The notes beneath the pieces were generated by a model. That model worked only from the letters and a program-made list of their open reading frames with translations, was not told where the DNA came from and searched no databases. The translations under genes and the position numbers were made by a program. Shown here one piece after another: positions 2,422 through 32,364 of a stretch of 64,000 nucleotides of DNA. Source of the stretch: Octopus vulgaris (Eukaryota); the NCBI GenBank assembly GCA_951406725.2, contig OX597829.1, forward strand, positions 29,636,001-29,700,000, written 5' to 3'. Each line of letters opens with the position of its first letter. The first letter of the stretch is position 1.

Positions 2422-2647
2422 ATGAATGCGACCGGTGGTGAGAAGGCTAAAAAAACTGTCGGACTCATTGAGTCCGATGCTTTGGGGGATATCTCGGTGA
2501 AAGAAAATATAAAACCGGCCTCCGAATTATCGGTCAGCGAGAACCGCCATCAATTTGAACGTTTCTGTTGTGAAGTTGTGCCCCGACCCGATACCAAACA
2601 TGGAGTAACAGTTCAAGAAATGACCGTACCTACCGTAGACACAGAAA
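2422..2647 (+). CDS. Coding exon 1 of a GDXG/HSL-family alpha/beta hydrolase (carboxylesterase/lipase, Abhydrolase_3)
   Basis: ATG at 2422 opens MNATGG...QEMTVPTVDTE. The donor A|GTGAGT at 2647/2648 is phase 1 and joins exon 2 to give ...VPTVDTE-I-GIPITIYNP, the strand region that precedes HGGG in HSL-family esterases. The context is CpG-rich. Confidence 0.8.
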
Positions 2648-4027
2648 GTGAGTTAACATTGAATATTATTTCATGTATAATCTCTTATAATGTTTGTATG
2701 TCTGTCTCTAACATTTATATGTCCATCTATCTATTTATGTCTTTAAACATATCTATATCAACCGTTTTTTTTCTTACTCTGTCTAATACATCTATTTCAT
2801 GTGCGTTATCTATTCGTGTTATAAGCTTGTCTGTCTTCATGCATACTTTATTTTTGATATCTGTCTACATCCATGTCTAATCTGCAAAACACCGTGTTTT
2901 GCTCACAATATTCACTCACACGTGTGTATACATGTATGTTTTAATTAACCAGAATATTGAGGTAGTGTGTTTATGGTTCAGTTGTAAATAAATTTCTACG
3001 TGCGTAGGTTTCATACACATGTTAAACTTCATGTATCTGTCAGTCATATAACATGTATTTATATCTGTCTCTTGTTATTCATTAATCTCGACATTTCTGT
3101 CAAAAGCAGAATTCTTTTCCCATTCAAATTATATTGATATATTGGTTTATTTTGACTCAGCAACAAAGTGGGAATGAAAAACAGGTTGTTTTTATTTCAT
3201 TGTATCTCACAAAAGAAATAAAAAAAGGAAAAGAAAAAGAACCGGGTCACCGCGGACTTCGCTCGCCGGTAGCCTGTTTCCTTGAAGCTCTTGGAAAATA
3301 TTCCCACTTGTAGCTGCACTCTATTTTGCATGGCATTTTTGCATGCAACACTGCAAAAAGCACATCACCTTTCTCTCAGCATTCGGTTATTAGAATCTTT
3401 CTTTTAATTTCTAGTTTCGGATTTGTTCATAATCTATTTTATCATATTTATTTCCCGCCTTTTGAATTAAAGTGTTTGCGATAAATGTTTTAATTTTCTT
3501 TCTTGTTTTTAAAATTAATTGCTCTGGAGACAAGCAATAGAATGAGGAAGCGGAAAATGGATCAGTGCCTTGTGACTCTTTTTACACCGATTAAGAAGTG
3601 TAAAGGTCTTTCATTCATTAACCTTAAGACTTAGGGAAGTGAAAGATTACAGAATATGTGTTGGTTGCTAAGTTTATTTCTGTTTAGTTTTAAACCGTTG
3701 GAGGTTAGTAGTTGGGGAAAGAGAACCCTGCGGCGGAGGGTGAATAGGGAGGATGGCAAAAGGTTTATGCAAGTAGAAGTTTCTTAATATACATTCGTTG
3801 TACCTCTTTGCTACAAGTGTGTGACTGTCTCTATATTGATGTTCGAACTCGCGTGTGGAGCAGCACATTTGTTCTTCGGAATTGTTTTCCCTGTAATTAT
3901 TCGCTCTAAATCATCTTCATACAGCTTTAGAGTTTAATGAAGGCAAATTAACAATACAATATATAATGTGTATATGTTTACACACGTTTATACATTATTG
4001 ATATTAACGGAAAATATATATAGCGCA

Positions 4028-9514: not shown

Positions 9515-9520
9515 CATACA

Positions 9521-9644
9521 CCTGAGTAAGCACAAATGTGAAACAAGGTAGGCAAAAATAGTACTCAAATACTGAAGGTAGAGAAATATGCTTTATCATT
9601 AAAACTGCATCTTTTGCGATGTTTTTGCAGCTTTAATGATAAAG
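9521..9644. mobile_element. Shortened relative of the fold-back element
   Basis: The leader CCTGAGTAAGCACAAATGTGAAACAAGG...GTACTCAAATAC...ATATGCTTTAT matches 9673-9750. Short inverted repeat CTTTATCATTAAAACTGCA / TGCAGCTTTAATGATAAAG. Flanked by (TA)n. Confidence 0.65.
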
Positions 9645-9671
9645 TGTATATATATATATATATATATATAG

Positions 9672-9898
9672 ACCGGAGTAAACACATAAATGCGAAACAA
9701 GGTGGAAAAAAGAGTACTCAAATACCAGTGGTAGAGTAATATGCTTTATTTTAAGCAGCAGAAAATTCAACAAAATCTGTTACTCTGAGTTTCTCGTCGT
9801 TCATCAGACAGTTTTTGCTAGCAAAAACTGTCTGATGAACGGCAACGAGAAACTCAGAGTAACAGATTTTGTTGAATTTTCTGCTGCTTAAAATAAAG
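9672..9898. mobile_element. Fold-back non-autonomous element (Penelope pLTR-like) with hammerhead-like cores, copy 1
   Basis: Loopless palindrome at 9744-9898 centred on GCT|AGC (arms 76 and 79 nt, one 3-nt indel), plus a ~72-nt unique extension. Flanked by (TA)n. Second copy at 32136-32364. Confidence 0.8.
9823..9870 (+). ncRNA. Minimal type I hammerhead ribozyme-like motif
   Basis: AAAAACUGU-CUGAUGA-A-CG-GCAA-CG-A-GAAA-CUC-A-GAG-UA-ACAGAUUUU. Conserved core present, stem I pairs, stem III is palindromic (ACUCAGAGU), GUA cleavage triplet at 9859-9861. The 10.1-11.1 pair is non-canonical. Confidence 0.6.
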
Positions 9899-10214
<316 letters not shown>

Positions 10215-27173: not shown

Positions 27174-30100
27174 CTAGGTTGTGTACTTGGTAATTCCCAG
27201 GGGTAAAGATGTTCTATTGAAACACCTTATTACTGTCATATAAAAATGGAATTTTGTTATAACTGCCACAAAAGGTGTATTTTCCTTCAGAAAAGTACAA
27301 AAGACTGGAGGCTGGCGATATAGGTTTTCGTAGGTTGGCAAAAGAGGTTGTCATAGGGAGAGGCATCTTTGTTCCAAAATTTCATTCTTGCAGGGCTTTG
27401 TGATACACAATGTTTTTGGTTTTGCCATTGGGTGCTGCATAGATGAATAAATTTTCCTGATTTCCAACTCTAGACATAGAGCTGTCCGTGAGATAAAGCA
27501 GGTTCTGTCAGATTAAGGCCTACCAATTCCAATATCTGACCCTGTGCTTTGTTGATGCTAATTGCAAAGCTGAATCTCAGTGGGAATTGTAGCCTTTTGA
27601 AATCAGTTTGTGTGTCCGAAGGAATCGGAGGAATCTTTGGAATGCAAGCATCTTCACCACTTGCTTTCCCAGTCAGTATTGTTGCCTCCAACACTGTCTG
27701 CATCAATTTTTTGATAAGTCTTGTGCCATTGCATAATTTTCGGGGATCAAGGTTTCTTAAAAGCATAACCGGGGTTCCAACCTTTTGAGGCAATTCATGC
27801 GGTGGTAGACCTGTAGTTGCAAGGCTATTAAGGAATTCAACAGGTTAGTGAACAGCATCATTGGTGTGGAACATAGTATCAATTGACTTGTATGTGTGAT
27901 GATCACCAGGCAGTTGTTCCAGAAGGTGATTGTTTACGCCATCGACTGTGACATTTTTTGGCACCAAAATTAAACATCTTCTCAACCAACAATGGTCTGT
28001 GTGTTGTGTGTTCAGATTGGGGCAAACTCTCACCAATAGTTCTTGTATATTTGACACCAAATTGCCAAAGGGTAAACTAATCTTCCCATCCTGCTCAACA
28101 ATTACAGCACCATTTCCAATATCCTTTAATTGCCTGCAGAATTTCTCCATGTGCGCATCACCATCTAACTGCATTCTCATGTTTGTTGTGAGTTTCAGCT
28201 TTCTAACCTTGGTCCAAAGGTATGAAGATTTGATGCTCACATTTACCTCATCTGCTCTCATTCTCTTTGGAATGACTGGGAGTGCTTGTCGAAAGTCACC
28301 TGCAAGGAGTACTGTTAGGCCGCCTATTAGCCTTGAGTTGCGCCTCAGATCTAGAAGTAATCTGTTAAGAACCTCAAAAGACCCCCTTATGACTCATTGT
28401 CACTTCATCCCAAATGATCAATTTGCACTTGGTGAGAATTTTTGCTTTTGTAGTGCCACGACTGATATTGCAGGTTGCTATCTCTTTTTTTTTTCTGGAA
28501 GGTCCAAAGGCAATTTGAAGCACATGTGAGCTGTGCATGCACCGTTTAACAGAGTTACAGCTATTCCACTTGACGCCATGGCAAGGGCTATCTGTTTATT
28601 TTGTTGCAGCTTTGCCAAAATAAGATTGATAATGAATGTTTTGCCAGTTCCACCTGGAGAATCAAGAAAGAAGAGATTACCAGTCTCACTAAGAGTGGAT
28701 GAAATAATGGATTTGAAGGCAGTTTTTTGATCCTCGTTCAATTTGTGTTCATTATCAGCCATAAATGCTGCCATTTCTTCAACATCATAATTGATCTCCC
28801 GTACATATTTGATGTCAAGGGTTTCAGGTGACACATCTGGCTGAGGCAGACCAAAAGCAGCAACTCCACTGCCACCCATGGATTTCTCTCCGTTGTCTAG
28901 GTCATTGAATGCTTCGTTGAAAATAGCCTCATTTTATTCGACATTTTCCAATGGGTTCTGCCTTTGAATTCAGTGTAGTATATCCTCTGACATGCTTTCT
29001 CTGTAATTCTCCCAAAGCGTTACAGGATCACTCAAGGCACATGTCAAAGCATTGTGGAGAATTGACGTAGTTGAGTTGGCATTTTGGCGAAAGAAGCCTT
29101 GTTGAGTGTTTGGTACCAATGAGCATCATCTTCAAGTAGTCCGTGTTTGGCACAGGCCACCCTAAAGGTTGGACAGAGCTCTCCATTAAACATTTGTAGA
29201 TCTTGAAAACATGTTGGGACCTCAGACAATGTGTAGGAGGAGACGTAAAAAGAAGCACTCTTGTTGATTTGGATGGACTGTGTAAACTCTCCCAATAGCA
29301 TTGCTTTGAAATATTTCTTCTGCCTCATAGGTGATAATTGGAGTTCCATTTATGTTTTACCCATTTTTTTTCCTGACCAGGTGTAATAGACAGGTACTTC
29401 AACATAAATCAGGGATCGGGAAAAATTGTTTTGCATAGGTCGAAGAAAGCTGTAAGAGTTGTTTTTGGGGGTTGTTGAAATTGCTGTTGAGCATTATCTT
29501 CCGTGAAATTGACATGCTCTCCAGTTTCAAGATGAACAGCTAGATTCACAACCATTGGATACCATCTGTGAAGTGGGAAGCCAAACATATGTCAAATCAC
29601 CTCGTTTGATGTGTATCTTCCCAGTTGTAATGTCTTATTTCATCCGTTTGCTGTTCATGTGCATTGACTCCAAAAACTGCCATATCGGACCCCTTGTTTA
29701 TGTATTTGCAGATGTATTTTATGTTCTTAACAGAATTACATGATTCGACATTGATGTGTGCCTCAAATATTTTCGATAGGAGTTTGTTGTATGGAACAAT
29801 CCATCTGTTGTCAACTTCAACCTCTTGCTGGTGTGTCTTCAATGTTGCAGTATAACTGCCATGTTCAGATTTGTGCCACCTGTAGAGTGGCTAACCGTCA
29901 TGTCCAGTTCGTGTTTCTTGAACGAATGGTCTGGGGAACCTTTTGCTGCACATATTATTCTCCATGCAAGGAAACGAAGAGTTAAAGCTTCCACGGGGCC
30001 TTCACAATGTTGTAGAGCTGAGCGTCTTGCTCTGGGTTTGGGAACTCTGCAGAAATGATGTCATCAATCAAATCTGGACATATCCTCTCCTTGCACCATA

Positions 30101-32135: not shown

Positions 32136-32364
32136 CTTTATTTAAAGCAGCAGAAAATTCAACAAAACCTGTTACTCTGAGTTTCCCGTTGCTGTTCATC
32201 GGACAGTTTTTCTAGCAAAAACTGTCCGACGAACGGGAACATGAAACTCAGAGTAACAGGTTTTGTTGAATTTTTTGCTGCTTTAAATAAAGCATATTAC
32301 TCTACCACTGGTATTTGAGTACTCTTTTTTCCATCTTGTTTCACATTTATGTGTTTACTCTGGT
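32136..32364. mobile_element. Fold-back hammerhead-like element, copy 2 (opposite orientation)
   Basis: Palindrome at 32136-32292 centred on CT|AG, plus an extension at 32293-32364 that is the reverse complement of 9672-9743. Flanked by (TA)n. Confidence 0.8.

Follow-up and report, generated by a model that had tools for sequence, protein, structure and literature searches.

A palindromic insertion in Octopus vulgaris, probably assembled head to head from two truncated 3' ends of a Penelope-like element

Introduction

Positions 9672-9898 of the DNA analysed here (the window: 64,000 nucleotides of Octopus vulgaris contig OX597829.1, whose numbering is used for the locus) hold a palindrome that lies between runs of (TA)n and carries a hammerhead-ribozyme motif on each strand. 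The initial annotation, made from the letters of the window, took it for a self-contained family of ~230 bp, similar to a retrozyme or to a MITE derived from Penelope-like elements (PLEs). The question raised by this locus is whether the palindrome is an element in its own right or the product of a larger one, and how its two arms came to lie head to head. The reading that we hold to be probable is that two 5'-truncated 3' ends of a PLE were joined head to head in (TA)n, and that the palindrome was made at insertion from two cDNAs rather than copied as one piece. The genome searched comprises 2.8 Gb in 227 contigs.

Anatomy of the insertion

The insertion is 227 bases long and consists of the last 153 and the last 81 bases of a PLE of about 3.4 kb. 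A natural copy of this element (L154:3302-6694; 3,393 nt) served as the ruler for the unit positions given below. On this ruler, the left arm with its tail corresponds to unit 3241-3393 and the right arm to unit 3241-3321. The features of the locus are as follows.

9647..9670, no strand: left (TA)n target run, read from the letters
9672..9898, no strand: entire insertion, a head-to-head pair of 5'-truncated 3' ends from a putative Hydra-clade PLE
9672..9743, minus strand: tail of 72 nt, unit 3322-3393
9744..9821, minus strand: tailed arm on the left, unit 3241-3321; loop II lacks 3 nt, a private deletion
9745..9750, minus strand: mirror copy of AATAAA in the left arm
9772..9816, minus strand: left hammerhead motif, with C3 at 9807 and H17 at 9781
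9818..9821, no strand: self-complementary CTAG common to both arms, the loopless junction, unit 3241-3244
9818..9898, plus strand: right (tail-less) arm, unit 3241-3321, identical to an intact autonomous copy
9823..9870, plus strand: minimal type I hammerhead motif of the right arm, with the cut predicted 3' of A9861 and a self-complementary, dimer-type stem III
9832, 9839-9848, 9849, and 9852-9860: C3, stem II region, G12, and stem III, respectively, of the right arm
9892..9897, plus strand: AATAAA, one base short of the tail-less end
9901..9927, no strand: right (TA)n target run, read from the letters

The description of the locus as a spacerless palindrome of 155 bp holds: the palindrome spans 9744-9898, and its axis (GCT/AGC, between 9819 and 9820) is flanked by 22 exact pairs and then by a 3-nt gap. 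The same is true of the right-arm hammerhead followed by AATAAA and of the minus-strand motif that runs on into a ~72-nt tail. The 3-nt deletion noticed in the left arm can now be called private, as it occurs in one of the 30 best copies, namely the window's own, and leaves loop II with 1 nt. Judging by its damaged stem-loop II, the left hammerhead is likely a dead motif. Two small stem-loops are predicted in the tail (9680-9740). In full-length tandems, the tail leads directly into the element body, 67 nt upstream of the ATG.

The parent element

The parent was reached through 195 copies whose junction differs from this axis; in the 30 examined, the arms extend further upstream. Copies of the type pLTR-ORF-pLTR have terminal repeats 3.39-3.45 kb apart around an ORF, which in L142 and L154 is an uninterrupted frame of 727 codons. 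Counted by eye, 20 of the 150 matches listed for the C-terminal part lie in such an uninterrupted frame. Linkage to PLE ORFs, on which the initial proposal of a PLE origin had been made to depend, was thus found, and the arms are almost certainly the stub of a PLE.

Pfam and PDB sequence searches with the 727-codon protein gave no match. The best PDB match of its predicted fold was TERT (E 5.7e-10); the fold was obtained with an alignment of 118 proteins and had a pLDDT of 93, versus 35 from the single sequence. The following motifs were recognized: RWK at position 53; DKT at position 129; YRDD, present in 118 of 118 aligned proteins; C578-x-C580-X5-C586; C683xxC686; and C711xH713. The C-terminal pattern VVY...YTG...R...E...N, a candidate GIY-YIG endonuclease (EN), has invariant Y, Y-x-G, R, and N in the same alignment. 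The CCHH motif is absent, with no Cys between the two Tyr motifs. GxKF/Y words in the first 130 amino acids occur in only three of the 118 aligned proteins, and the family protein P0001 has one such word. The homolog P0003 passes the Pfam GIY-YIG model; P0001 itself has no Pfam match.

These features recall the Hydra clade of EN+ PLEs (Craig et al., 2021; PMC8557442), which is characterized by RWK, a change from DKG to DKT, a GxKF/Y motif that is not conserved, a CxCX5C linker, the lack of CCHH, CxxC and CxH, (TA)n targets, and a 3' hammerhead. The octopus family shares with it RWK, DKT, the CxCX5C linker, the lack of CCHH, the CxxC and CxH motifs around E and N of the EN domain, and the (TA)n targets, as well as a 3' type I hammerhead with a palindromic stem III of 4 bp (PMC8557442, File S2). 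Stems I and III of Hydra-2_Amil are nearly those of the octopus family (PMC8557442, supplement). Hydra-1_Obim has a different hammerhead, and its protein, compared by eye in the N-terminal part, is homologous but distinct. The octopus element also departs from the published description of the clade (PMC8557442) in three respects: its unit of 3.39-3.45 kb exceeds the general length of less than 3 kb, which is a tendency and not diagnostic; its tail has 72 nt rather than 30-40; and its stem II has 2 bp rather than the 3-7 in File S2. By these motifs, and by a comparison by eye with the named Hydra proteins, the parent of the insertion appears to be an abundant, recently spreading (young) family of the Hydra clade.

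Partial tandems that yield the pLTRs, an inverted 5'-truncated copy, and a one-sided tail are all present in the family. The inverted 5' pLTR copy anticipated for a PLE is supported, and targeting of (TA)n agrees with the TA runs around the insertion and with the habit of the Hydra clade. In about 14 copies (L121, L129-L156, L240, and L241), the upstream pLTR begins within unit 2616-3165 or still further up; no start falls within 3166-3393. In L240, L241, and L155 the arms exceed one unit, in L241 on both sides, which fits a circular or tandem read-through template. Frames of other kinds were met in passing. One lies just upstream of a full-length PLE (L121:6864-7424, minus strand) and resembles a fragment of a Tc1/mariner transposase. 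Broken frames at 27470-28933 of the window (minus strand) resemble a Pif1-type helicase of a Helitron.

The hammerhead motif

The right arm combines CUGANGA, GAAA, and UH with stems I-III in the layout of a minimal type I hammerhead. This layout and the match to the Hydra motifs support the original identification of such a hammerhead with a palindromic stem III. A scan with Rfam had a different outcome: no hammerhead family was among the 61 matches at E<=10, and only generic hairpins below gathering scores appeared. Members of the young family combine a canonical core with a stem II limited to 2 bp between A/A; in older forms, stem II is often 3 bp long, but the core has U4C. The U4C change reduces hammerhead activity in vitro, although a viroid tolerates it (PMC3088659), and the hammerheads of PLEs cleave slowly even in dimeric form (PMC4209133; PMC6765202).

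Among 16 chosen arms, which are related sequences picked by a core-like pattern, 81% of the cells were paired, versus 26-42% when the arms were slid. These same related and selected sequences display one convincing pair change in stem I, from U-A (8) to C-G (5) between lineages, which is weak evidence for a kept structure, and changes in stem II that look like CpG decay. Conservation of the core relative to its flanks is uninformative in young copies because these decay neutrally. The folding energy predicted for the monomer is -0.3 kcal/mol, versus an MFE of -5.1, and that for the stem III dimer is -7.4. RNA of the stub, from either strand, is predicted to form a hairpin of about -125 kcal/mol, which would exclude the ribozyme fold. 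The idea that hairpin formation could switch off cleavage is therefore a fair folding prediction. The hammerhead of the stub would be a passenger, predicted to be weak in itself and, if the stub is transcribed, locked by its antisense. Another family is represented by a hammerhead-like repeat at L120:2963 and L287:3435 (minus strand), which has a long stem I and the cores CCGACGA or CTGATGA.

A DNA transposon, either a TIR MITE or a fold-back element whose likeness to a hammerhead is incidental, would account for the long inverted repeat and the TA flanks and would agree with the Rfam result. However, the two ends differ from each other, each arm derives from the 3' end of an element that encodes an RT rather than a DNA transposase, and the motif matches published Hydra hammerheads. 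An origin from a DNA transposon is refuted by the linkage to the RT ORF, and we give it practically no weight.

Copies and insertion classes

Exact matches to a 30-nt core numbered 3,754 in the genome, those to a 28-nt word from the 3' end 8,102, and those to a 24-nt loopless axis 229; each reversed control gave 0. Given the abundance of core and axis and the empty controls, the motif is not a product of chance. The best copies are 98-99% alike and have fixed ends. Two further copies lie in the window.

9520..9644, no strand: adjacent older head-to-head stub of the same lineage, with a tail ~83% alike and arms too short for a hammerhead
32136..32364, no strand: second, older family copy, 92% alike, with a C-C-G-A core in both arms

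The first of them adjoins the insertion across one (TA)n run, a repeated use of the same target. The arms of the second differ from each other at subfamily-type sites in N7 and stem-loop II, and, as far as these letters indicate, this copy may possibly have arisen from two different RNAs.

A systematic sample was drawn from contig C1 (0-33.6 Mb) by exact matches to the core or to the 3' word and classified manually. The 69 loci comprised 50 head-to-head two-arm insertions, 2 ambiguous ones, and 17 with a single arm, in all except 8 of which the far end was traced. One tailed and one tail-less end were present in 48 of the 50 head-to-head loci, and the other two had a partial tail. In a palindrome-enriched set, which may include a few duplicated loci, 118 of 122 insertions were tailed/tail-less, 4 were tailed/tailed, and none was tail-less/tail-less. 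Where the tail is lacking, the arm stops at an alternative 3' end of the element itself. Arm length ranged from some tens of bases to beyond one unit in the sample and in 29 further loci up to 69 Mb, and the two-arm insertions form a nested size series from less than 200 bases to more than one unit.

The junctions were diverse: 35 short two-arm loci with both anchors had 27 different ones. Three subfamilies contain the exact axis, and their variants are also seen in arms that extend upstream. This diversity and the recurrence of the axis argue that the parent has given rise to the palindrome repeatedly and that no single mini-element is being replicated, although re-copying of some stubs is possible.

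These counts bear on the self-contained non-autonomous palindrome of the initial annotation, a retrozyme- or MITE-like unit that would be transcribed and re-inserted as a whole by the PLE enzyme. One exact axis common to 229 sites, together with the near identity and fixed ends of the best copies, is what such a unit would leave behind, and non-autonomous PLE derivatives do exist (PMC8557442; bioRxiv 10.64898/2026.07.22.740005). The axis nevertheless covers only 458 arms, versus 3,754 exact cores, and the junctions grade into arms of several kilobases. Head-to-tail tandem arrays of the stub were not seen, and its RNA would be the hairpin of about -125 kcal/mol. The arms form a nested series of truncations of an autonomous element, and the claim of a self-contained ~230-bp family was not supported; we judge this origin to be very improbable. 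The metazoan non-LTR retrozymes (bioRxiv 10.64898/2026.07.22.740005; PMC7229834) are likewise short, non-coding, and PLE-derived and carry a type I hammerhead, but are described as head-to-tail tandems with one hammerhead per unit. Retrozymes further have no coding partner in cis and are marked by abundant circular RNA. The octopus stub is a dispersed head-to-head pair continuous with an ORF-bearing autonomous element and was rejected as a retrozyme of this kind.

The 5' edge of the arms

The short arms have a sharp 5' edge 17 nt upstream of the core. The starts of 114 arms, tallied with three breakpoints set by hand beforehand, were distributed as follows: 32 at unit 3238-3241; 23 at 3242-3254; 26 at 3255-3284; 2 at 3290 or beyond; and 31 extending upstream. 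None of the 114 started at 3225-3237, and none at 3282-3289, the predicted region of the hammerhead cut. The breakpoints carry no sign of hammerhead cleavage, and the cut was rejected as the template 5' end for this PLE family. Of the listed arms that reach 3238, the first 100 include 8 that end exactly there; none of the remaining 92 ends in the next five bases (P = 8e-7). The genome-wide figure of 955 arms with a base other than G after 3238 is inflated by a subfamily variant, since 43 of 100 listed arms have C or T.

Position 3238 is the A of CCATTCT, which we take to fit the initiator consensus. An older lineage, found via the neighbouring stub at 9520-9644, has kept ATTCT, and the bases that follow differ. 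There, the arm starts at ATTCT or at most 2 nt from it in 7 of 29 distinct loci, most of the others being too short to reach it. A DPE-like word at about +29 matches at 6 of 7 letters in older copies but fits poorly in young ones, and carries no weight here.

The edge could also be set by structure, as 3238 in the young family closes, on the outer side, an extended stem I in which AUUC pairs with GAAU. In two older loci (L368 and L370), the edge lies within a near-palindrome, and microhomology could set it. The ATTCT edge of the older lineage falls outside the stem I extension. Full-length upstream pLTRs (~14 distinct copies) never start at 3238, all of them starting at 3165 or upstream, so that long insertions need another template. 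On balance, we lean towards the 5' end of an RNA as the cause of the edge.

A splice acceptor at CTAG was considered and rejected: the older lineage has not conserved the AG, and bases that precede CTAG are found in arms. Assembled contigs of three sequencing runs, whose status as RNA is a guess, cover the element, and those of a fourth barely do. They contain no splice joint in the pLTR. Contigs by themselves give neither starts, strand, nor level, so that they carry no claim about expression. Those matching the tail are far deeper than those matching the ORF, likely because many families share the tail.

Pairing of the two arms

The lengths of the two arms are coupled: by manual classes, 8 loci were long/long, 3 mixed, and 39 short/short (P = 7e-7). 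The arms also agree in subfamily. The variant at site 3313 was found in both arms of 45 loci, in one arm of none, and in neither of 76, the expectation for one arm under random pairing being 56. The corresponding numbers are 15, 2, and 103 for site 3289, and 8, 0, and 94 for site 3256. This concordance fits both two cDNAs and a fold-back, and likewise one RNA or two RNAs of one master.

The second arm could therefore have arisen by self-priming, that is, by fold-back of one strand, with the edge reflecting a structure that the RNA or the cDNA forms at the foot of the extended stem I. Agreement of the arms in subfamily and length and the coincidence of the edge with the outer pair of that stem in the young family are in line with this origin. 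L314:6917-7067, in which a tail-less arm of ~23 nt is joined to a tailed arm at about 3243, resembles a fold-back at the extended stem I. Self-priming on an antisense template has been proposed for PLEs of Adineta, whose junction palindromes were read in this way (PMC3846280). A fold-back should, however, leave a loop, and the commonest junction has none; a 3238/3240 junction would require a loop of 1 nt. The second arm ends at the independent tail-less 3' end, and not at the start of the first arm or at random. Neither the ATTCT edge of the older lineage, outside the stem I extension, nor the differing arms at 32136-32364 are expected from a fold-back. We regard self-priming as unlikely, although it deserves more weight than the other alternatives, and consider assembly from two cDNAs fairly probable.

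In L227, L036, and L092, the arms are separated by a short stretch of filler, templated or poly-T, that resembles the scars of end joining.

A proposed mechanism

Assembly from two cDNAs could proceed in four steps. The putative GIY-YIG/RT protein of the PLE would nick both strands of the self-complementary (TA)n target. From each 3' end, reverse transcription would then be primed at an internal site, of which there are two, separated by 72 nt: the end of AATAAAG (3321) and the end of the tail (3393). One cDNA would result from each. The template of the short class would be an uncleaved 5' RNA leader starting at the A of the initiator-like CCATTCT; with its beginning at 3238, both cDNAs would run off there. 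Finally, the cDNA 3' ends would be trimmed and joined, most often via the self-complementary CTAG, whose annealing would give a loopless junction. Longer products would require a template of another kind, either read-through (tandem) or circular RNA, as has been proposed for PLEs (PMC4209133).

Parts of this scheme have counterparts in PAc, a Poseidon PLE of Anolis (PMC11167929). In vitro, PAc cleaves and extends both strands of AT-rich DNA, uses unprocessed RNA, initiates at a pair of internal sites, one at each border of the tail, and has no need of the hammerhead; the protein is predicted to be a dimer. PAc belongs to a different clade, and the part of PMC11167929 available to us contains no derivation of the inverted structure or of the 5' edge. 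A transcription start and an internal promoter in the pLTR are known from Penelope (PMC2377424; PMC8557442).

A broader version of the model is tentative and, to our mind, just short of an even chance. Every PLE insertion would be double-primed, a protein dimer giving each nicked strand one internal start site, so that one end has a tail and the other has none. The tiny palindromes, which number in the thousands, would be run-off copies of uncleaved leader and would map the transcription start with single-base precision. The hammerhead would have drifted through weak states (U4C, then a 2-bp stem II) while the element spread, and would be dispensable for integration or decoupled from it.

Comparison with known inverted insertions

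Head-to-head copies with a one-sided tail are also known from EN+ PLE units that carry an inverted 5'-truncated copy (PMC8557442, legend to Fig. 2). Pen2a and Pen3a of Adineta likewise combine an inverted copy, a junction palindrome, and a tail at one end (PMC3846280), and pairs of minimal hammerheads on opposite strands occur in Schistosoma (PMC4209133). Inverted 5'-truncated copies, junction palindromes, one-sided tails, opposite-strand hammerhead pairs, and Hydra hammerheads have thus already been published in these three sources; PMC6962438 provides context. Relative to the known inverted units, the octopus stub is a minimal case whose arms enclose neither an ORF nor a loop, and a target duplication is unreadable in its (TA)n surroundings. 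The rule of one tail and the sharp 5' edge were counted here. A search of the published literature, which included part of the PMC8557442 supplement, returned no description of this octopus PLE family.

Implications

How PLEs build inverted, one-tailed insertions is stated as an open matter in PMC8557442. The octopus family supplies insertion products by the thousand, ORFs that are intact, and two end sites exact to the base, which makes the model of two-strand priming directly testable. In genome annotation, stubs of this kind belong merged with their putative Hydra-clade parent and should not be catalogued as MITEs, retrozymes, or microRNA hairpins. The hundreds of near-perfect hairpins could, if transcribed, be substrates for editing or small-RNA pathways. 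The insertion at 9672-9898 is best taken as a minimal product of a young family that appears to belong to the Hydra clade, and its value lies in the countable record of PLE insertion to which it belongs.
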